This document shows positions 5,828 through 59,507 of a DNA stretch of 64,000 nt, in pieces. The notes beneath the pieces were generated by a model. It saw nothing but the letters and a program-made list of their open reading frames with translations. It was not told the origin of the DNA and made no database searches. The stretch lies in the IMG/VR virus record IMGVR_UViG_2645727948_000011; one strand, 5' to 3'. Each line of letters begins with the position of its first letter. The first letter of the stretch is position 1. This DNA comes from a virus. Lineage: Duplodnaviria > Heunggongvirae > Uroviricota > Caudoviricetes. Made by a program: the position numbers and the translations under genes.

Positions 5828-8815
5828 ATGAGCTTAAGCGATCAGGTGGTAATGGCCACCAGCATAGAAACGCTGATCGAGCTGCTAAAGAACCTGCCCG
5901 ATTATGGGCGGGTTTCGTATGTGGTGACAGCGAAGGGAGACGAGGTAAAAACAGCGTTTGATATCGTCGATGCCTCAGTTCTTTTGGTATCCAATACTCT
6001 GGATGGGAAAATTAATCCAGACTATCCCCAGGAACTTCAGCCGCGCGACCGGACCCGCGCATCCAGCCTTCTTCAGGTTAACCAGATATCCAAAGATTTG
6101 CGGCCTGCTCAGCTTACTGATTCCGGTTTATCCAGCCATGGTGCGCCGATAATTGGTGAGGACAATGCCGTTGAGTCAGGTAATGGACGGACCATGGGGA
6201 TCATCAAAGCCTATCAGGACGGCAATGCGGATCGGTATCGTGAGTACCTGATTGAACATGCGACCGAATTCGGCATACGACCTGAAAAGGTTGAATCAAT
6301 GACGGCTCCGGTACTGGTGCGCCGCCGGTTAACTAAGGTTGATCGCGTTCAGTTTGCCAAGGACTCAAATATTTCTGATCTTCAGGAAATGGCAGCCAGT
6401 GAAAAGGCTTTTGTTGATGCCGACAGCATAACACCGGCGATGATGGCGTTGTTTAACCCGTCAGAAAGCGGAGATCTGCTTAGCCGCAGTAATGACGCGT
6501 TTATTCGCGGATTTATGACGCAAGTTGGTGCCACACAGGCGGCTGGCCTTGTAACTGAAGATGGGCGACCAACACGGCAACTTGTAGACCGTATACAAAA
6601 CGCGATCTTTGCCAAGGCATATAAGGATGCGCGCCTGGTAAGGATGGTTGCAGAAGAACCTGATCCGGACATGCGTAATGTTCTGACGGCGCTTAATGCG
6701 GCAGCCAATGATTTTGTCCAGATGCAGGCTTTATCAGGAGAAGCGCACAAGCAGGCTGTGACAACTATTGTTGATGGCATTGAGACAGCGGATAGCCTCG
6801 ATAAAAAGGCGCTGGCGGCATTGAAAGATGCGGTAGACCTGGTAAGGCAATCGAAGGAGTCAGGCCAACATATTACCGATGTTATTGCTCAGGGGGATAT
6901 GTTCAGCGAAACAGCCCCGGAAGTGAAAGCTCTCGCGTTGTTCATCGTCGCGAATAACCGTAGCGCGAAGCGTATGGCCACCGCCTTTAAATTGATGGCT
7001 CAACGTATCAATGATGAGTTACAGCACCAGGGCCAGGCGCTCGGGGATATGTTTGGCGGCGGCGATGTGTCGTTACAGGATATCCTTCGCCAGGTATCTC
7101 AGGAACTGGAAAACGAAGGTATGCAAGGGATATCCGGCGGTCTTTTCGAGTCAGCTTCCGGCGGTAGTTACAACGGTGTTGCTCCATATACCAGCTTGCT
7201 ATTACATCGGGCATCCGGCATCAAAGACATTATTCATCTGATCAGGCTGCTATCCCGCACCGATCCCCAGGATGAGCAGCTTGTACAAGTGCTTGCGCAT
7301 TTTGTCCGAATGCCTGTTGCCGACGTAAAAAAATGGTGCCGATTATTCGGTATCAGCAATTCGTTACTTCGCGGATTGTTAAATTACGCATCCTCCCTTG
7401 GGCGCGACGGCTTTGATGAGATAGCGCAGGCGATAAAAAACGGAGATATGCCACCAGCTATTGACTGGTTTTCCATTCGCCCAACCAGGGTGAAAGCATT
7501 CCTTAGCGCGGCGCAATCAGCATCACCATTGGCAGAAATGGTTCAGAGGTTGTCGCTCATATTCACAGACCATACCGCGTTGGGTGATCTGACTCTGGAC
7601 GAGATGAAAGAAGCCTCCATTCAGTGGGCCGATCAACAAAATGAGGTTAACTCTGACTTCTTGCCAGCATTCAGGAAGGCCGTTAGTAAAGCTGATGATG
7701 CCCGTGGAATTCTGAGGGCATTTAAGGCATTGCAAAGTCAGGTTAATAAACATGTCGGTGATATCGATGGGGTAACGGCGGAAGGCAGGGATATCCTTAA
7801 AGAGCACGGCATAACGCCAGAGTTTATTGATGAGATCAGGACTGATATGCAGCGTGAGGTCGTATCGTCCCTGCAAATCGTAGCCAGAGCGTTGGCGGAT
7901 GCTAATCCGAAGAGTGCGGCCATTGTTAACCGGGTTATTGGTGATATTGAAGCATCGGAGGGCATGGGGGCGCTGAAACTCTTCCTTTCGCGAGCGTTTA
8001 ATCCTAACGGCAATATTCTCCCTGGCATTATTGGTGAGGCTAAAAAGTATGTCAGTGAAGAAGAACTTTCGCAGCTTGACCAACTACTTAAGCGATTCTC
8101 ATATAACCCGCAGACACGCTGGCAAATGAATCAGCGAAGTATGGGTTCGGTCCACGAGAAAGTGTTATCTGCCATGAACAGTGCGATCGCCAACTCATCC
8201 GTATCTGAAGAAAAAGCTCTTGAGTGGGCCGACTCTTTTATCACGGAAGAAGTGGAAGAAGCCCGCGCTGGACAGAATGGTGGGATAGACCTGCGCAAGG
8301 AACTTGCTGATATTTATCGCCTGACCGGCGGTAAAATTTCGACCTTATCAAAGGTGGTTCACCACCAGGGAAGGGCATATGCAAATCTTAATGGTGTTGT
8401 TGCTGTCAATTTGAACGATGAAAATGCAAGTGCACTGTGGCACGAGCTGGGTCATCATCTTGAGTACAGTAACCCTGGTTTGTTAGAGAAAGCCCGGTCA
8501 TTCCTGAAGGCCAATGTTGAAGGGGATAAGCCATCTTTCGTCAATATCGGTGGGCGTGGCAAGCCTGAATGGTGCTTCAGATCTCGATTGAGTAATATTT
8601 ATATGGCGAAGGTATACCCGCCAGCCTCAGTAAGTAACACCGGGAAAATTCGGCAGAAATCACCGACTATTTCCAAAACGTCAGCAACGGAAGTATTCTC
8701 TATGGCTCTTCAGTTGTATCATGACAAAGAGGCCGCTGCCGCATCACTGATGAATGGTGACGGATTGCTGGAACTGTTATTAGGTGTGGCAAAGGAGCTA
8801 AATAATGCAGATTAA
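5828..8815 (+). CDS. ddrB: DdrB-like large Dar-system protein with C-terminal HExxH motif
   Basis: 995-aa ORF; WHELGHHLE (zincin-like HExxH) near the C-terminus. Confidence 0.65.
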   Translation: MSLSDQVVMATSIETLIELLKNLPDYGRVSYVVTAKGDEVKTAFDIVDASVLLVSNTLDGKINPDYPQELQPRDRTRASSLLQVNQISKDLRPAQLTDSGLSSHGAPIIGEDNAVESGNGRTMGIIKAYQDGNADRYREYLIEHATEFGIRPEKVESMTAPVLVRRRLTKVDRVQFAKDSNISDLQEMAASEKAFVDADSITPAMMALFNPSESGDLLSRSNDAFIRGFMTQVGATQAAGLVTEDGRPTRQLVDRIQNAIFAKAYKDARLVRMVAEEPDPDMRNVLTALNAAANDFVQMQALSGEAHKQAVTTIVDGIETADSLDKKALAALKDAVDLVRQSKESGQHITDVIAQGDMFSETAPEVKALALFIVANNRSAKRMATAFKLMAQRINDELQHQGQALGDMFGGGDVSLQDILRQVSQELENEGMQGISGGLFESASGGSYNGVAPYTSLLLHRASGIKDIIHLIRLLSRTDPQDEQLVQVLAHFVRMPVADVKKWCRLFGISNSLLRGLLNYASSLGRDGFDEIAQAIKNGDMPPAIDWFSIRPTRVKAFLSAAQSASPLAEMVQRLSLIFTDHTALGDLTLDEMKEASIQWADQQNEVNSDFLPAFRKAVSKADDARGILRAFKALQSQVNKHVGDIDGVTAEGRDILKEHGITPEFIDEIRTDMQREVVSSLQIVARALADANPKSAAIVNRVIGDIEASEGMGALKLFLSRAFNPNGNILPGIIGEAKKYVSEEELSQLDQLLKRFSYNPQTRWQMNQRSMGSVHEKVLSAMNSAIANSSVSEEKALEWADSFITEEVEEARAGQNGGIDLRKELADIYRLTGGKISTLSKVVHHQGRAYANLNGVVAVNLNDENASALWHELGHHLEYSNPGLLEKARSFLKANVEGDKPSFVNIGGRGKPEWCFRSRLSNIYMAKVYPPASVSNTGKIRQKSPTISKTSATEVFSMALQLYHDKEAAAASLMNGDGLLELLLGVAKELNNAD

Positions 8816-9113
8816 AATCGCAGCGCCATTAGGCGGAGATGCCATTATCGAATTTGATGATAATGAAGAAGTTTCCGGGCGTTTAAGCATTATCTCCGGT
8901 GACATTACCGAGGACATGATCGCTGAAGCCATAGCTGGGGCAAATCCCAATAGCTATATGGGATTCGTTAACACCCTTGATGCTCCCGCAAGTGATGTTC
9001 TCCGAACGCTGCATCTTTACGCTGGCTGGTTTGTTGATTGGCCAGCAGTAGATGGTGGCGATGAGGACGACGACGATGATTTTGGTGATCATGTAGACCA
9101 GATCGTATATTGA
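8805..9113 (+). CDS. small acidic protein, last gene of the darA operon
   Basis: 102 aa ending in an Asp/Glu-rich tail (GGDEDDDDDFGD); overlaps ddrB by 11 nt. Confidence 0.5.
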   Translation: MQIKIAAPLGGDAIIEFDDNEEVSGRLSIISGDITEDMIAEAIAGANPNSYMGFVNTLDAPASDVLRTLHLYAGWFVDWPAVDGGDEDDDDDFGDHVDQIVY

Positions 9114-9116
9114 AGA

Positions 9117-9141
9117 AATCCCGCCAATTGGCGGGATTTTT
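9117..9141. terminator. bidirectional rho-independent terminator
   Basis: AATCCCGCC-AATT-GGCGGGATT followed by TTT; sits between convergent operons. Confidence 0.75.
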
Positions 9142-9144
9142 ACC

Positions 9145-10239
9145 TCACGAGAAACTCTTTTCTGATGTCAGCCAACAGTGCTCGTGCATATCTCTTGGTG
9201 GTTTTTCGACAAATGCCTCTTCAGCCACATCCTGCCAGGGGATTTGTTTAGCCCATTCAGCTATAGCGTTATGGTTTGCCGAGAATAACGGTATTGTATA
9301 GGCCTTCAGCCAGTCTAATGTGCTGGAGTTGTGTTTTTTAGCGTGATGTTTCGCATGGTGTTTGGCGATCACGATCGTAGGCACTACCCATTTACTACCG
9401 TCAGTCATTGTGAAGTGCATATTACGGGGAACAGATGACTTTTCCATCAACTCCCGAATCCCGGGGAATTTCCCCAAGATCAATCGGCGATATTCATCGC
9501 TATTGCGCCCACCAAACTCTTTGGCTTTGAATTCAAGATATGCTTCAGAAACGAGAGGTGAATCCTCTGTGTTTAGAGTTATCGCCGTGAAAAAACCAGC
9601 AGGATTGTTTTTACTATGGGCCAACCGGTGATGCGAATCATAAAAGTACCCTTTCTCGCGTTCCGATGGTTTCGACAGCAACAGCAGGCGCGAGTCATAA
9701 TTGGTTAAATTGCCAGTTATCACTGCATGAGCGCGATCGCTGATTTCCGCCGAGTTAATAACGATGAAAAGATCGTGCGGTCCAGTAAAACCAGCCAGAG
9801 ACTCTTCGTTATTCAGACAATAGGTTATATAGACGCATCCCCATGTTTCACTGATATGCACCAACCCTTTGTCAGGGTGTATTCTGAAATAATTGCCAAG
9901 AAAAGGGTGTTTTTGGGTAACTCGCTCCCAATAACGGAACATATAGTCAATTATTGTTTTTCGACTATCGTTAATCGCAGGAGAAACAACCACTGTACGG
10001 GAGCACGAATACAGTATTGTTTGCAGGATGCTAATCACTGCCACAATAGAGGTTTCCCCAATACCATGTGGTGTGGTGGCAGTGACTTTGGCTCCGGTGT
10101 TCTTTATCGAGTTAATAATTTTTGCTTGATGAGGTGTTAACTCAATATCAAGCAACTCTTTTGCTGCCAGTTCCCAATTGTCTTTATACCGTTCTATCAG
10201 TGCTAACCAGGCAGATTCATTCTGTATACGATTAATCAC
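9145..10239 (-). CDS. terminase large-subunit paralogue: ATPase-domain homologue with degenerate Walker motifs, no nuclease domain
   Basis: Aligns by eye to the N-terminal ~300 aa of PacB (29477..30961): shared ITGxLT, RxLLLSxPxxxxGYFYDxHH, TAITLNxExSPLV; Walker A GHGTGKS becomes PHGIGETS, Walker B IIDEAS becomes VINSAE; His-rich C-terminus HHAKHHAKKH. Confidence 0.7.
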   Translation of the reverse strand: MINRIQNESAWLALIERYKDNWELAAKELLDIELTPHQAKIINSIKNTGAKVTATTPHGIGETSIVAVISILQTILYSCSRTVVVSPAINDSRKTIIDYMFRYWERVTQKHPFLGNYFRIHPDKGLVHISETWGCVYITYCLNNEESLAGFTGPHDLFIVINSAEISDRAHAVITGNLTNYDSRLLLLSKPSEREKGYFYDSHHRLAHSKNNPAGFFTAITLNTEDSPLVSEAYLEFKAKEFGGRNSDEYRRLILGKFPGIRELMEKSSVPRNMHFTMTDGSKWVVPTIVIAKHHAKHHAKKHNSSTLDWLKAYTIPLFSANHNAIAEWAKQIPWQDVAEEAFVEKPPRDMHEHCWLTSEKSFS

Positions 10240-11019
10240 TTTCCACCTCTTCCGTGGTGTTTTCTTGCAGTTCTGTTAATGCAGCACGACATAGGTTCCG
10301 GGCATTGGCTATAGCCACACTTTTGACTTCATCCGTCATCGTGCAGGTAATGTACTGATCGAGTTCTTCAGCGCGGATGATGCTTTTGCCAATCAGAAAC
10401 TGTATTTGCCATAGCAGATCGGCATCCATAATCAGAATTTCTGCCGGGCCTTCAGGGCCAGCCGGGAAGGAAACATAAGACTGTTTGCCCAGGCCGACAA
10501 CTCGACAACTTGCTTCAAGAATTGCGCGCTTGAGGTCTGACTTTATAACGGAAACAGGTTGATTTTCACCAGTGATTACGCCGTTGACATGGAAAGGCAT
10601 GTAGCTTGAAATACGCTCCACTTTCCACACGCCAGCAAGCGATCCTTCATGCAGCACAATGGGGGTAACCGCGAGTTTCATCTCACCATATAACTGCTGG
10701 CAGATAGCTGGATTGCTGAATACATCTAAAGGCTCACATTCAAACAGCGGCGCAATCTGCATGAGGTCCATCATGGTCATCCCTGGGGTACGAGCAGTAA
10801 TGAATTTGCGCATACCAGTATCCATTGCGCTCCAGATTGCTACACCATGCTTTTTGCTCACTTCTTCAGTAAAGCCAAGGTGGCACATGATGGTTTTTTC
10901 GATAGCCAGATCGGAGATAGAAACCTTTTCGCCAGGTACACCATCATTATTGATGGTCACTTCGACACTCTGGCCATTACGCAGGCGGTATTGAATTGTT
11001 TTAGTATTTTGTGCTGCCA
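10232..11019 (-). CDS. hypothetical protein (partner of the terminase paralogue)
   Basis: 262 aa from ATG at 11017-11019 (MAAQNTK...); 8-nt overlap with the downstream gene; no recognisable motif. Confidence 0.55.
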
Positions 11020-11034
11020 TAGTCTTTTCTCTGC

Positions 11035-11217
11035 TTAAAAACTGATGTATTGCGCCTTCAGGTGGGTCAGGAATGTTTTCCCACCAGCGAAAGCAATATC
11101 TCGGGGTGTTCTGTTCGTTAAAAACGCGTTCCATTGCCAACTTTGGCGTTTTTTAGCGAGTTCGTGCTTTTGTTGGCGTTTGGACCACCGCTTTTCTTTC
11201 AGTCGTTTTTTACTCAT
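11035..11217 (-). CDS. small basic protein
   Basis: 60-aa Lys/Arg-rich ORF between ssb and the 262-aa gene. Confidence 0.35.
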   Translation of the reverse strand: MSKKRLKEKRWSKRQQKHELAKKRQSWQWNAFLTNRTPRDIAFAGGKTFLTHLKAQYISF

Positions 11218-11222
11218 AAACT

Positions 11223-11711
11223 CTAAAACGGAATATCGTCTTCAAAGTCCATTGGAGGTTCGTTATTGGCGCTGCTCTGAGGTTTGCCACCACCGCTGTA
11301 TTGCTGGTGGTTTTGAGGTTGGTTTGACTGCCCCCAGCCATTTGAGGACTGTGAATCGTCGCGGCGAGCGCCGATCATTTGCATGGTGCCGCCCTGGCTG
11401 ACGATAATTTCCGTCGTGTAACGTTCTACACCGGCGTCATCTGTCCACTTACGGGTTTTAAGTTTCCCTTCGATGTAGACCTGAGAACCTTTTTGTAAAT
11501 ACTCACTCGCAATTTCAGCAAGTTTTCCGAACAAAACGACTTTATGCCATTCTGTTTGCTCTTTCTGTTGGCCCGTTTGCTTATCGCGCCATGATTCATT
11601 CGTTGCGATGCTGAGTCTTCCGACTGCGCCGCCATTTGGTATATACCTGATCTCCGGGTCTTGCCCCAGGGTACCAATCAGGATGACTTTGTTTACACCG
11701 CGTTGTGCCAC
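11223..11711 (-). CDS. ssb: single-stranded DNA-binding protein
   Basis: [23 protein letters not shown]...[12 protein letters not shown]...acidic tail DDIPF: canonical SSB OB-fold and C-terminal tip; GTG start. Confidence 0.95.
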
Positions 11712-11730
11712 TTTTCTTACCTAATAAAAT

Positions 11731-11747
11731 AAATTAATTAGAGCAAT
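11731..11747 (-). promoter_or_regulatory. C1 operator-like site upstream of ssb
   Basis: Reverse complement ATTGCTCTAATTAATTT against remembered consensus ATTGCTCTAATAAATTT. Confidence 0.6.
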
Positions 11748-11880
11748 AATGTATATCTTTGAAACGTGGCTAACAAGTGATTTGCATTATCCTGTACCTT
11801 CTAAAGGGATCGAGTCAGTCGGTATTGGCTGTGAATGAGTGTTTGTCCTGGAGCGTAAAAAATTCGCTTATGAGGTCTTT

Positions 11881-12438
11881 ATGAAGGGAAAAACAGCCGC
11901 AGGAGGCGGTGCAATTTGCGCTATCGCGGTGATGATTACCATCGTGATGGGTAATGGCAATGTGCGAACCAACCAGGCGGGGCTTGAGCTGATTGGTAAC
12001 GCTGAAGGTTGCCGACGTGATCCATACATGTGCCCGGCGGGGGTATGGACTGACGGGATCGGTAATACACACGGGGTAACGCCGGGTGTGCGAAAAACCG
12101 ACCAGCAAATCGCCGCTGATTGGGAAAAGAATATCCTGATCGCTGAACGCTGTATTAATCAGCACTTCCGGGGCAAAGACATGCCCGATAATGCCTTCAG
12201 TGCAATGACAAGCGCGGCATTCAATATGGGATGCAATAGCTTACGGACCTACTACAGCAAAGCGCGAGGCATGCGAGTAGAAACGTCCATCCACAAGTGG
12301 GCGCAGAAAGGGGAATGGGTGAATATGTGTAATCATCTCCCTGATTTCGTGAACAGTAACGGCGTGCCCCTGCGAGGTTTAAAGATTCGCCGTGAAAAAG
12401 AACGCCAGCTTTGCCTGACGGGGCTTGTCAATGAATAA
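11881..12438 (+). CDS. lyz: SAR-type endolysin (lysozyme)
   Basis: MKGKTAAGGGAICAIAVMITIVMG (Gly/Ala-rich signal-anchor-release segment) then lysozyme-like core; 185 aa; GAGGT RBS. Confidence 0.9.
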   Translation: MKGKTAAGGGAICAIAVMITIVMGNGNVRTNQAGLELIGNAEGCRRDPYMCPAGVWTDGIGNTHGVTPGVRKTDQQIAADWEKNILIAERCINQHFRGKDMPDNAFSAMTSAAFNMGCNSLRTYYSKARGMRVETSIHKWAQKGEWVNMCNHLPDFVNSNGVPLRGLKIRREKERQLCLTGLVNE

Positions 12439-27942: not shown

Positions 27943-27959
27943 AGAATTATTAGAGCAAT
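27943..27959 (-). promoter_or_regulatory. C1 operator-like site in the immC control region
   Basis: Reverse complement ATTGCTCTAATAATTCT. Confidence 0.6.
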
Positions 27960-29476: not shown

Positions 29477-30961
29477 TTATTCATTAAGCCATGCCAGAGC
29501 TTCATCAACCTGCGCTTCGTCTTCGACGCTAAGCACTTCATCCTGGGGAACATAATCCGCCAGCATAGCGAAACAATATGTATCCCAATGGTCTGGTGAG
29601 TGCAGGTTGAGTTTTTTCTTCATATCCTCCTTACTCATCACCTTCCATTGACCTGCGGAGTTAATCCCTACAGGGATTTTCGACGCTTCCTCAATAGTTT
29701 CATTACCCTTATCCAGTCTCATACGACCTGATTTTACGGCCTCTGCGGCTTGAACGTTGGCATAAGCACGCTTATCAAAGTACAGGCTCTTATCTTCACG
29801 GCTATGCATCTTTTTACCCCAGCGTATACGCTGTACGGTAATACCATAATACTCGTACATCAGATCCGCCGTTGCTTTACCCAGGCCATCGCCGTCTATC
29901 GCTATGGTGATATTTGGGAATCGCTCAGGATTACATTCTGCGAAAATTTTGGCGGCAAGCTGCGTTTCTGTAACGTCTGTGTATTCCAGCATTCGATAGT
30001 TGATTACACGGCGTTTATTTCTCTGGCCGGACACCATCATGATATTGATAACGGACTTATCCCGTCCCGTACCACCAGCAACGTCCACACATGCAAGCCA
30101 GCCCCATCCTTTGGCAATCTTGACTTTCCGCCGCGTCGCACGTTCAACCTCATCACGTCCAAGAAGGAAGCCATCCTGTGATTTAGGGAATAGTCCGCGT
30201 ACTTTAATCATGTACATAGGGTTATCACGCCCGCCGTACTCCGCCAGCTTCATTTTGATAAATGCTGGCGTTACCAGCGGTGATTCCTCACTGTTAAGCG
30301 TGATCGCCGTATAAACGCCATCAGGGTTACCAGGACGCTTGGCCAGTTTATGGTGAGTATCGTAGAAATAGCCGCTTGGGCGTGTAGGCTGTGACAGTAA
30401 TAAGATGCGGTTATCCTGTCCGGTAAGAGCACCAGTGATGATACCGAAAGCTCTATCACTGACACCGGAGGCTTCATCGATAATATACAGAAGATGATCT
30501 GCGTGTTCACCGGCGAGAGCTTCTTCACTTCCCAGACGAAAGCCCTTCGGTACTACAGTCCATACACCTTTACCAGTAACCTCATAGAAAGCGGTTTCTG
30601 TCAGAACAAAATAATCAGCAAGCCATGGAAAACGGCTGGTGGCAGTAGCCCAGTTTATCTTGATGTACTTGAATATACCGGTCATTACCTGCTGAATTTT
30701 GTTCGCAACGATAATGGCGCGGGCACCGGGATACATGATTATGAACAACATGATCATGATAGAAGTCATGTCTGATTTCCCGGTACCGTGACCAGACGAA
30801 ACAGATGTCTTGCTACCCTGTTCCTGCACAGACTCAATAATCAGATCCTGCTGCCAGGTAGGTGTTTTGCCGAACAAAACATCAGCGGCCGCAATCCAGT
30901 CATAACGATATAGCGCCACCAGCTCGCGCCAACGTGGATCCGTTACGCAACTTCTGGCCAT
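29477..30961 (-). CDS. pacB: PacB terminase large subunit
   Basis: 494 aa; Walker A SGHGTGKS, Walker [13 protein letters not shown]-terminal nuclease region; stop/start overlap with pacA. Confidence 0.9.
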
Positions 30962-32154
30962 TAATCATCATCCCCGTATAGCTTGCGGGTAACTTCTTCG
31001 TCTTCCTCCTCGTCTTCGTCCAGGTCTTGTTCCAGCCATGGGTCGTTTGATACACCTTCAGTATCAACATCTCCATAACCGCCTGTATCAACAATATCGG
31101 CGATTTCTTCCCTACGCTGCTCAATCCACAATGCGGCATCGGCGCGGCGGTTGGCGGCCCGTTCTCGCGCAACTTTGTCCAGATCTTCAAGAGAAGGGCC
31201 ACCGACGGCTGTTTGCCTTTCCTCATCATCGGTATTGGTCTTAGGAGCACGCAGATCGGCTTTGATTTGCTCCAGCATCAGGGGCGGTACTTTCCCTCCA
31301 TGCGCCTCGATGAATTCAGCTGCCTCCAGCACTGACCAGTTGTTTTCACGCTTTCGTTCGTATGCCAGCTTAACAATGCCAGCTTGCCCCATAGACAAAG
31401 CGTGCTTTTCCGCCTCCCGGCTTTCTTTTCGATAGTTATTCCGGATGCTGTAAATGGTGTTGATCAGGCTGCTTATCTGCGCGGAACAGCTGTTTAGCAT
31501 GCTCGCGATACGGTATTCAGGCGGAGTTCCTTCATCATCGTCTTTTTGCTGATCGCGCATTTCCTGAACCAAGCGAATACACGTATCCCTGGCGTTCTCC
31601 AGCATAAGGAGATGAGAGAGAGACTTTTCCAGAAGAGTGGTTTCCAGAACATCAGCCCCGGACCGACGCAACATAGCGCGCGCGGCCTTCCGCGCTTCAA
31701 CGTTATCTATCAGGTAATCGCCAGCTTCGAATTCAAAGCGTTCACCATCATCATCCAGGGTGTCGCGTTCCAGGCGATCACGTAAGGTCCGGTGGGCGCG
31801 GGTGATCACGTCATGATCATCAGAACGATCATTTATGCGCTTATTCTGGCGCTTCGCGTTCTCGACTGCGGCACTGACAACAGCATTAACTCTTTGTTTT
31901 TCAGCCGTTTCAGCCACAATGTGATCACCTGCACGTTGATCATTAGCGTGATCAATGATCATGCTTTTTAGTGGTTTTCTGACAGGCTTATTTGGCTTAC
32001 GGCTGTCCGCTGTTCCGGTGTCTTCTTTGAATGCACGGAGATAACGACGTGCGGTGTTTGGGTTGAGATTAAACTCGGCGGCATATTGTGCGATGGTGTA
32101 ACCACCATCTCGCGCCAGGCGAGCAAAATTCTTCTTGTGATCGTCCCAGGTCAC
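30961..32154 (-). CDS. pacA: PacA terminase small/pac-recognition subunit
   Basis: 397 aa, [42 protein letters not shown] (HTH); contains the pac hexamer cluster in its 5' part. Confidence 0.9.
31803..31961. other. pac: pac packaging site (TGATCA hexamer clusters)
   Basis: Hexamers at 31803, 31814 and 31826 (GATCAT variant), then four TGATCA at 31922, 31937, 31949, 31956, about 100 bp apart, inside pacA. Confidence 0.8.
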
Positions 32155-59479: not shown

Positions 59480-59507
59480 ATTACACTAATAAATTTATTA
59501 GAGCAAT
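59480..59507. promoter_or_regulatory. overlapping divergent C1 operator dyad
   Basis: ATTACACTAATAAATTT on plus overlapping a perfect ATTGCTCTAATAAATTT on minus; upstream, in minus-strand sense, of the tRNA/hairpin cluster. Confidence 0.7.

Follow-up and report, generated by a model that had tools for sequence, protein, structure and literature searches.

A catalytically degenerate relative of the P1-type large terminase encoded beside isaA in the ssb operon of a P1-like phage-plasmid

Why would a phage-plasmid that already encodes a functional packaging terminase carry, in the operon of its ssb gene, a second protein built on the ATPase fold of the terminase? No hallmark protein of tailed phages is more conserved than the large terminase, which is also a direct target of several bacterial immune sensors; the question bears on conflicts with the host as well as on DNA packaging. 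It is posed by a stretch of 64,000 nucleotides from a member of the Caudoviricetes (IMG/VR record IMGVR_UViG_2645727948_000011; in its entirety, the window), in which positions 9145 to 11217 span a gene that we term pTerL, for pseudo-terminase, and its upstream partner, isaA. The window is that of a P1-like phage-plasmid: across positions 8800-11800 it shares 99.4% identity with phage vB_EcoM-813R1 and 96.4% with two records that bear the name P1, reference P1 covering only 63% of that region. As set out below, pTerL is almost certainly a non-catalytic derivative of a P1-type large terminase that has kept the ATPase fold.

Relationship of pTerL to the PacB terminases

The N-terminal domain of pTerL is homologous to that of PacB, the functional large terminase encoded in the same window. 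BLASTP aligns the two with 36% identity over 266 amino acids (aa; E = 3e-55), and the alignment contains the blocks ITGxLT, RxLLLS.P...GYFYD.HH and TAITLN.E.SPLV. Among the PHROG profiles, pTerL matches phrog_2 (terminase large subunit; E = 3.5e-9) and is a full-length member of the uncharacterised phrog_5902 (E = 3.4e-186; residues 1-364 against positions 1-359 of the 359 in the profile). An AlphaFold2 model, computed from a 145-sequence alignment, has a mean predicted local distance difference test score of 94.8 and a predicted template modelling score of 0.88; in a Foldseek comparison of this model against the PDB, all of the top 30 matches are large terminases, with Sf6 gp2, D6E TerL, the P74-26 TerL ATPase domain and T4 gp17 each retrieved at a probability of 1.00. 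pTerL and PacB thus have a common fold, and they further have in common the non-catalytic motifs GYFYD.HH, NP.G, ITLN.E.SP and GGR..Y...G.FP. Sequence searches of Pfam, NCBIfam, PADLOC and the PDB returned nothing significant for pTerL, IsaA or the small C-terminal domain of pTerL, and PADLOC likewise had no match for Hxr or for one stand-alone relative of the small domain. As a separate matter, the PacB of the window, a bona fide large terminase, has no Pfam match at E ≤ 0.1, and a precomputed Pfam terminase domain is present on just one of the 120 listed PacB-family proteins; hence, the Pfam coverage of the PacB terminase lineage is poor.

The conservation of individual motifs was assessed by aligning the pseudo-terminases with 121 PacB proteins, namely that of the window and 120 members of the family from Enterobacterales, Vibrionales, Aeromonas and Pseudoalteromonas. 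The Walker A motif (P-loop) G-H-G-T-G-K-S is 95-99% conserved in this set; in pTerL it reads PHGIGETS, with the first Gly replaced by Pro and the Lys by Glu. The pseudo-terminases fall into three clades, of which clade 1 is the type found in the window, and their P-loops (PHGIGETS, PYGIGRPQ, PEGIGQKT and PHGIGHKS) place Glu, Arg, Gln or His at the position of the Lys. The Asp and Glu of the Walker B motif are 100% conserved in the PacB family, in which I-I-D-E is aligned with I-V-I-N of pTerL, and the equivalent pairs across the pseudo-terminase clades are I-N, V-D, T-E and M-D. Likewise, the SQPT of the coupling (C) motif, 99-100% conserved in PacB, is altered to SKPS, SIPS or SAPS. Overall, the PacB family has 65 positions of the ATPase domain with a conservation of 95% or more; pTerL keeps 34 of them, its losses including five conserved basic residues of PacB (K98, K130, K138, R141 and K253). 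The nuclease is absent: PacB residues ~290-494 are without a counterpart, and the column of the first nuclease catalytic Asp (Asp in 99% of the PacB family) is occupied by Ile or Leu in clade 1 and by Arg in clades 2 and 3. The degeneration is graded, with clade 1 being the most extreme and the clade-3 forms the least.

A first-pass annotation of the window, prepared by reading the sequence without database searches, had viewed the 364-aa product of 9145..10239 as a pseudo-enzyme derived from the packaging motor. The significant matches to PacB and to the terminase profile, the retained fold and the lost catalytic residues and nuclease agree with that view, every block of similarity that it had named is in the alignment, and its reading of the Walker A Lys as replaced by Glu holds. 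It had also read the Walker B Asp-Glu as replaced by Asn-Ser; both acids are indeed gone, but the register was off by one, the aligned pair being Ile-Asn.

As judged from the sequence, then, the residues that Mg-ATP binding and hydrolysis require are missing from pTerL. Of the features by which a large terminase is recognized it has the ATPase fold, and it has neither the Walker A, Walker B and C motifs, nor the nuclease domain, nor a small-terminase neighbour in a late packaging operon; lacking the catalytic and architectural hallmarks, it should not be annotated as a large terminase. Current records differ on this point: GenBank labels pTerL 'terminase large subunit' in MH422554 (L002 1846-2940) and MH445380, and RefSeq calls it a hypothetical protein. 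The former label leaves each genome with two apparent TerL genes, and can distort terminase-based phylogenies or predictions of packaging strategy.

One might still suppose that pTerL retains enzymatic activity, as a deviant ATPase whose P-loop is non-canonical, given that the clade-3 sequences GIGQKT and GIGHKS keep a Lys-Ser/Thr pair one residue out of register and that an acid is still present at the catalytic-Glu position in clades 2 and 3. We consider this very improbable: in the clade of the window, Glu takes the place of the Lys, the loop holds no further basic residue and Walker B has no acid, and the catalytic positions differ freely among the clades while the rest of the protein is constrained, which is the pattern expected if catalysis had been lost in their common ancestor.

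With respect to its origin, pTerL is 35-40% identical to every member of the PacB family, the PacB of its own genome being no closer than the others. In neighbour-joining trees rooted with a distant terminase, the pseudo-terminases form a separate clade outside all 120 sampled PacB-family proteins, and the two groups are each monophyletic in 100 of 100 bootstraps of a 36-sequence subset, albeit with a root consisting of a single distant outgroup, such that long-branch attraction is possible. A recent duplication of the resident pacB is ruled out by the roughly equal distance of pTerL from all PacB lineages and its branching outside them.

The C-terminal domain and its relatives

Where PacB has its RNase H-like nuclease domain, pTerL has an added and unrelated domain of ~95 aa. 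In the AlphaFold2 model residues ~270-364 form a compact unit of three strands and four helices. The HHAKHHAKKH stretch, which the first-pass annotation had correctly reported together with the loss of the nuclease, and had taken for a His-rich C-terminal tail, proves instead to be residues 294-303 in the first helix of this folded domain, with 61 residues after it. Residues 272-361 match phrog_17928 at E = 3.7e-13, with reciprocal PHROG matches, and an exhaustive profile search of 1.84 billion representative proteins recovered 254 proteins at E ≤ 1e-3. Most of these are stand-alone proteins of ~100 aa that carry the motif MPDGS.W.VP..VIA..RA..YA...TLPLF...EI.DWA.NNMNW.DV; Pfam has no family for them, their sole match being to the C-terminus of the uncharacterised phrog_17928. 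A word-indexed protein search with the C-terminal domain returned only fragments. A first MAFFT alignment had suggested that these ~95 aa are a shrunken remnant of the nuclease, an idea that we rejected in view of the stand-alone ~100-aa family and the lack of any RNase H-like structural neighbour. Another candidate stand-alone version of the domain, encoded by a 95-aa gene after isaA in a plasmid that has isaA but not pTerL (L045), was found to be unrelated.

The modular nature of the domain is further illustrated by a permuted fusion, P0136 (L040 6001-6741), in which a small domain of the MPDGS type is N-terminal and is followed by the N-terminus of a pseudo-terminase with the P-loop GSGTGTTT, up to its truncation by a Tn3-family transposase gene (L040 6738-8384). 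Thus, the small domain and the pseudo-terminase domain have been joined in both orders. P0136 itself lies on a bacterial genome contig, beside AbiH and RecA-dependent nuclease genes and with no isaA upstream. By sequence comparison, the C-terminus of pTerL is an acquired independent domain from a widespread stand-alone phage family.

The neighbourhoods of the stand-alone versions offer one lead to function. The three that we examined, from unrelated phages, are all early DNA-metabolism regions: the gene lies between those for DNA polymerase B and RecA in one (L043 5001-5303), directly after a DnaB-type helicase gene in another (L048 4971-5291), and beside DUF2303 and H-NS genes in the third (L044 2562-2933). 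These contexts, along with the position of pTerL in the ssb operon with predicted co-transcription, the occurrence of its module after dut in clades 2 and 3, and the permuted fusion, would suit a DNA-metabolism accessory factor, in which the C-terminal domain is the core that engages a component of replication or recombination or one associated with SSB, the dead ATPase is a scaffold, and the whole assists or protects replicating phage DNA early on together with SSB. We hold this to be rather unlikely, as the loss of the five PacB-invariant basic residues named above argues against terminase-like handling of DNA, no DNA-binding or replication protein that has been characterised shows detectable similarity to the C-terminal domain, and pTerL is dispensable in many P1-like elements.

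The isaA–pTerL module: context, distribution and selection

Comparison with P1 defines the slot occupied by pTerL. The DNA of P1 aligns only to window positions 8700-9111 and 10231-11900, collinearly throughout the latter; between these segments, the window holds pTerL and a terminator, and P1 holds isaB and IS1. Hence, pTerL exactly replaces the IS1 and isaB of P1, in the same slot between ssb and hxr and with the same upstream gene, isaA. P1 IsaB (201 aa) was entertained as a homologue of pTerL and rejected: the best BLASTP match has E = 0.088 over 57 residues, there is no DNA homology, and the two are unrelated. The isaA-IS1-isaB slot has been documented as RD-2, a variable region of P1-like phage-plasmids (PMC6906374, PMC9603915), and knock-down by CRISPR interference found isaA, insA, insB and isaB of P1 to be non-essential (PMC10695390). 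pTerL is absent from P1, P7 and most P1-like elements.

The partner gene is shared with P1. The window IsaA is 94% identical to that of P1 over 304 aa, matches phrog_2326 at E = 8e-149, and shares 47% identity with the IsaA of clade 2, the start of which is the equivalent Met. P1 annotates a 320-aa IsaA from an ATG that, in the window, opens a 60-aa open reading frame (ORF) out of frame with isaA; this frame and the start of the clade-2 protein at the internal Met imply that the 262-aa form is probably the real IsaA, and the 58-aa N-terminal extension of P1 IsaA was probably over-called. The notion of a pseudo-TerS/pseudo-TerL module, with IsaA as a paralogue of PacA, was rejected (BLASTP E = 37; hhalign probability 0.1%). 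A scan of genome contigs for distant relatives of IsaA found only two near-identical Escherichia loci.

In the window, the isaA stop codon overlaps the pTerL start by 8 nucleotides (GTGATTAA). The C1 operator upstream of ssb (Table 1) differs from the operator consensus by one mismatch, with 0.01 matches expected by chance, and for the hairpin downstream of pTerL a folding energy of -19 to -21 kcal/mol is predicted, whichever strand is read. A scan of the coding strand from ssb to the hairpin, confined to consensus patterns, found no promoter-like or terminator-like site, which fits a single ssb-isaA-pTerL transcript to the extent that such a scan can tell. Thus, isaA and pTerL are the distal part of a C1-operator-controlled ssb operon that is ended by a bidirectional terminator, and, from this arrangement, pTerL is expected to be expressed early, before the late terminase operon pacAB. 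Beyond this operon, seven more matches to the 17-bp C1 operator consensus with 0-2 mismatches (0.01 expected by chance) start at 27943, 28026, 43293, 49058, 59480, 59491 and 62767; these mark other C1-controlled promoters of the window and include an overlapping divergent pair at 59480-59507. On the other side, going by the P1 annotation, the Dar anti-restriction genes lie just past hxr.

Much of this layout had been anticipated in the first-pass annotation, which put both genes behind ssb and a C1 operator, in the position of the IS1-flanked isaA/isaB region of P1 and some 20 kb from pacAB: the operator is identical to the annotated Ossb of P1, the P1 alignment brackets pTerL, and the distance to pacB is 19.2 kb. 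It had also described the upstream 262-aa gene as overlapping pTerL by 8 nucleotides, as is the case, and as being of no recognisable family, which the similarity to P1 IsaA corrects. Its outer limit of 11217 requires revision too, since 11035..11217 is the out-of-frame ORF and the real isaA is 10232..11020.

Table 1. Features of the pTerL locus and of the pacAB operon, in coordinates of the window
Feature	Position	Strand	Description
hxr	8805..9113	+	Convergent with pTerL; shares the hairpin
Bidirectional terminator hairpin	9116..9139	.	Between convergent hxr and pTerL; inverted repeat AAATCCCGCC-AATT-GGCGGGATTT, 10-bp stem
pTerL (pseudo-terminase gene)	9145..10239	-	364 aa, GTG start; PacB ATPase-domain paralogue, catalytically degenerate, fused to small C-terminal domain; from ORF list
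C-terminal ~95-aa domain	9148..9432	-	Residues 270-364; stands in place of the nuclease domain
His-rich helix KHHAKHHAKKH	9331..9363	-	Within the C-terminal domain
Terminase-ATPase-like domain	9445..10239	-	Residues 1-265; aligned with PacB residues 11-274; Foldseek
Altered C motif LLLSKPS	9664..9684	-	PacB: LLLSQPT
Degenerate Walker B LFIVINSAE	9745..9771	-	Residues 157-165; PacB Asp-Glu aligned to Ile-Asn
Degenerate Walker A (P-loop) TTPHGIGETS	10048..10077	-	Residues 55-64; Glu at the invariant Lys position
isaA homologue	10232..11020	-	262 aa; upstream partner of pTerL; 94% identity to P1 IsaA
60-aa ORF and leader between ssb and isaA	11035..11217	-	Out of frame with isaA; matches N-terminal extension of the annotated 320-aa IsaA of P1; from ORF list, P1 annotation and alignment
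ssb	11223..11711	-	First gene of the operon; Pfam SSB, E = 8.6e-40; P1 annotation
C1 repressor operator (Ossb/Op21)	11731..11747	-	ATTGCTCTAATTAATTT; upstream of ssb; identical to annotated P1 Ossb
pacB	29477..30961	-	494 aa; functional large terminase of the same genome, comparison sequence; 90% identical to proteins named terminase by NCBI; Walker A GHGTGKS and Walker B IIDE intact
pacA	30961..32154		Beside pacB

In its genomic setting, then, pTerL differs from PacB in not adjoining pacA, in being dispensable and in its expected early rather than late expression. A paralogue of PacB that is expected to be made before pacAB and that keeps non-catalytic surface motifs of the terminase could conceivably regulate the packaging of its own phage, binding PacA or PacB early so as to delay or tune pac cleavage until proheads are ready. 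This is improbable in our view: P1, P7 and most P1-like elements package normally without pTerL, which moreover does not track the resident PacB lineage and has as its conserved partner IsaA, a protein unrelated to PacA.

The distribution of pTerL is that of an accessory gene. Clade 1 is found on 120 plasmids of PLSDB, with the ORF intact in 119 of them, and in 100 of 5,426 complete E. coli genomes; clades 2 and 3, respectively ~52% and ~50% identical, add 44 plasmids of about 90 kb with another replicon type, for a total of about 160 P1-like or D6-like carriers. Among 34 IMG/VR loci, an intact isaA directly precedes pTerL in 32; of the two exceptions, one has its isaA cut by an IS21-family element, and the other is a short contig with no isaA in the 369 bases available. 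In the former (L006 1-2100), the element has IstA/IstB-like ORFs, and the pTerL downstream of the truncated isaA is intact. The overlap between the isaA stop and the pTerL start is 8, 11 or 14 nucleotides in different clades, and the two genes are translationally coupled in all three. In clades 2 and 3 the gene order is pacAB, c1, a cre-like gene, two small genes, dut, a Tad2-like gene, isaA, pTerL, phd/doc and humD; the presence of isaA-pTerL in two such different neighbourhoods indicates that the pair has moved as a unit.

The Tad2-like gene (PF11195, Thoeris anti-defence 2-like) lies directly upstream of isaA in three related loci (L039 4575-5237, L050 5515-6201 and L045 4290-4967), which suggests an anti-defence gene cluster around isaA. 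Its product has no sequence or fold relationship to pTerL or IsaA, and the gene is not in the window. This neighbour of isaA occurs in D6-like plasmids as well as in some P1-type plasmids without pTerL.

Given the loss of the catalytic motifs and nuclease and the absence of the gene from many relatives, might pTerL simply be a functionless, decaying remnant of a duplicated or captured terminase gene? The pairwise ratio of nonsynonymous to synonymous substitution rates (dN/dS) is 0.19-0.30 both within and between clades, with synonymous sites saturated between clade 1 and the others. Such values, together with intact ORFs in about 160 plasmids of three clades over this saturated synonymous divergence, the conserved overlap with isaA and the high-confidence predicted fold, make a remnant exceedingly improbable; the selection and conservation data largely refute it. 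By these measures pTerL is a working protein under purifying selection and not a decaying gene.

Within this constrained history, there are also signs of exchange. The clade-2 (L039 6001-7095) and clade-3 (L038 5494-6501) genes are ~88% identical in nucleotides only in the 3' half, which encodes the C-terminal domain, and the 5' half is much more diverged; this confinement of the high identity points to recombination near the domain boundary between these clades. In L038 the homology runs upstream in frame without an ATG; hence, the annotated clade-3 start is probably too short. In phage vB_EcoM-813R1 (L003 1869-2939) the pTerL match is split in two and the annotated product has 356 aa; close to the 3' end, an indel of a single base has altered the C-terminus.

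Candidate roles in phage conflicts

With its catalytic residues gone and its fold maintained, pTerL probably acts by binding, and not by ATP hydrolysis or DNA cutting. What might it bind? The first-pass annotation had proposed a decoy or regulator of PacA/pac recognition, a superinfection-exclusion factor or an anti-defence decoy for terminase-sensing immunity, all of which stay conjectural. One candidate is the packaging machinery of a competitor: the dead ATPase could bind PacA, the portal or PacB of a co- or superinfecting P1-type phage or satellite, or join the pentameric motor, thereby poisoning packaging and excluding the competitor. The ATPase fold and many non-catalytic positions of the PacB family (GxFYDSHH, DSP and GGR..Y.....G.FP) are kept; moreover, exclusion and defence genes are also among the cargo of the variable hotspots of phage-plasmids (PMC9603915), and prophage proteins that block the virion assembly of other phages are known (PMC10884400). 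We regard packaging interference as rather unlikely all the same: from a C1-repressed promoter, pTerL would be silent in the lysogen and expressed in the lytic cycle of its own phage, where it would meet its own PacA and PacB, and its roughly equal distance from all PacB lineages gives no sign of a specific target. Proteins of phages or satellites that interfere with packaging by binding terminase subunits include Ppi of the Staphylococcus aureus pathogenicity islands (SaPI) and Rpp of the phage-inducible chromosomal islands (PICI). To our knowledge, neither these nor blockers of assembly derive from the large terminase itself. The likeness of pTerL to Ppi, Rpp and the assembly-blocking prophage defence (PMC10884400) lies in non-enzymatic binding to the packaging or assembly machinery, and is functional and hypothetical only.

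The other candidate, which we tentatively favour as a possible though far from assured explanation, is that pTerL mimics the terminase without catalysis, as part of an accessory conflict module, and works in counter-defence. A conflict role is suggested by the variable hotspot beside the Dar genes, the Tad2-like neighbours of isaA, the C1 control shared with ssb, and the sensing of terminases by Avs2 and Upx. In particular, the terminase ATPase domain alone activates Avs2 and Upx (PMC13601566), and in those sensor families that have been modelled, recognition appears to target monomers of the target protein (PMC13581612), the extension of which to terminase sensors is an assumption. Briefly, the mechanism may be envisaged as follows. 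Upon derepression, pTerL would be made along with SSB, before the late terminase appears. Any factor that recognises the ATPase domain of a monomeric terminase, such as a sensor of the Avs1-3 or Upx type, would then be occupied or masked by it; IsaA would serve as its partner, and the C-terminal domain might supply a second contact. In this most specific form, with isaA-pTerL acting as a terminase mimic that neutralises bacterial ATPase-domain sensors of the Avs1-3/Upx type, made early so that the real terminase later escapes triggering abortive infection, the proposal is quite unlikely to be correct.

Several observations weigh against counter-defence. What Avs2 and Avs3 contact on the terminase is its active site, loaded with ATP (PMC13601566); pTerL should lack this active site and hence may not bind them at all. 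Further, were it to engage a sensor, it could activate rather than block it. The coupling to isaA is not reciprocal, with the clade-1 type of isaA present on 336 plasmids as against 120 for pTerL, such that about two-thirds of the isaA carriers are without pTerL. Nor is the regulation conserved: the clade-2 module comes after a cre-like gene, in a locus that yielded no C1 operator of the P1 type. The stand-alone relatives of the small domain in replication and recombination modules (DnaB, DNA polymerase B and RecA) point to DNA metabolism, not immunity. pTerL matches nothing in PADLOC, NCBIfam or Pfam, nor any named anti-defence family, and hotspots of the RD-2 kind carry defence as well as anti-defence genes. 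Our literature search found nothing specific on pTerL or on any terminase decoy or pseudo-enzyme, and no paper or curated family describing the pseudo-terminase, the function of IsaA or the small domain.

By analogy, the closest described counterpart of pTerL is vs.8 of phage T4, a stand-alone paralogue of the terminase ATPase that keeps its Walker A and B motifs and is toxic in combination with EcAvs2 (PMC13601566). Compared by description, both are extra, phage-encoded terminase ATPase domains without a nuclease; unlike pTerL, vs.8 keeps the Walker motifs (PMC13601566), and neither a small C-terminal domain nor an IsaA partner is reported for it.

Whatever its precise target, pTerL shows that the packaging motor can be recruited to a role other than packaging. 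It also provides a handle on three orphans: IsaA, the pseudo-terminases of phrog_5902, and a domain of ~100 aa that hundreds of phage lineages carry. If pTerL does interfere with terminase sensing or with the packaging of competitors, it would represent a new kind of conflict factor, and its carriers, the P1-like phage-plasmids, are clinically relevant vehicles of resistance genes. Should the counter-defence proposal be true, the isaA-pTerL module would be a decoy for a pattern-recognition receptor of a hallmark phage protein, the first of its kind to be described, and would exemplify the domestication of the packaging motor into a pseudo-enzyme of immune evasion.

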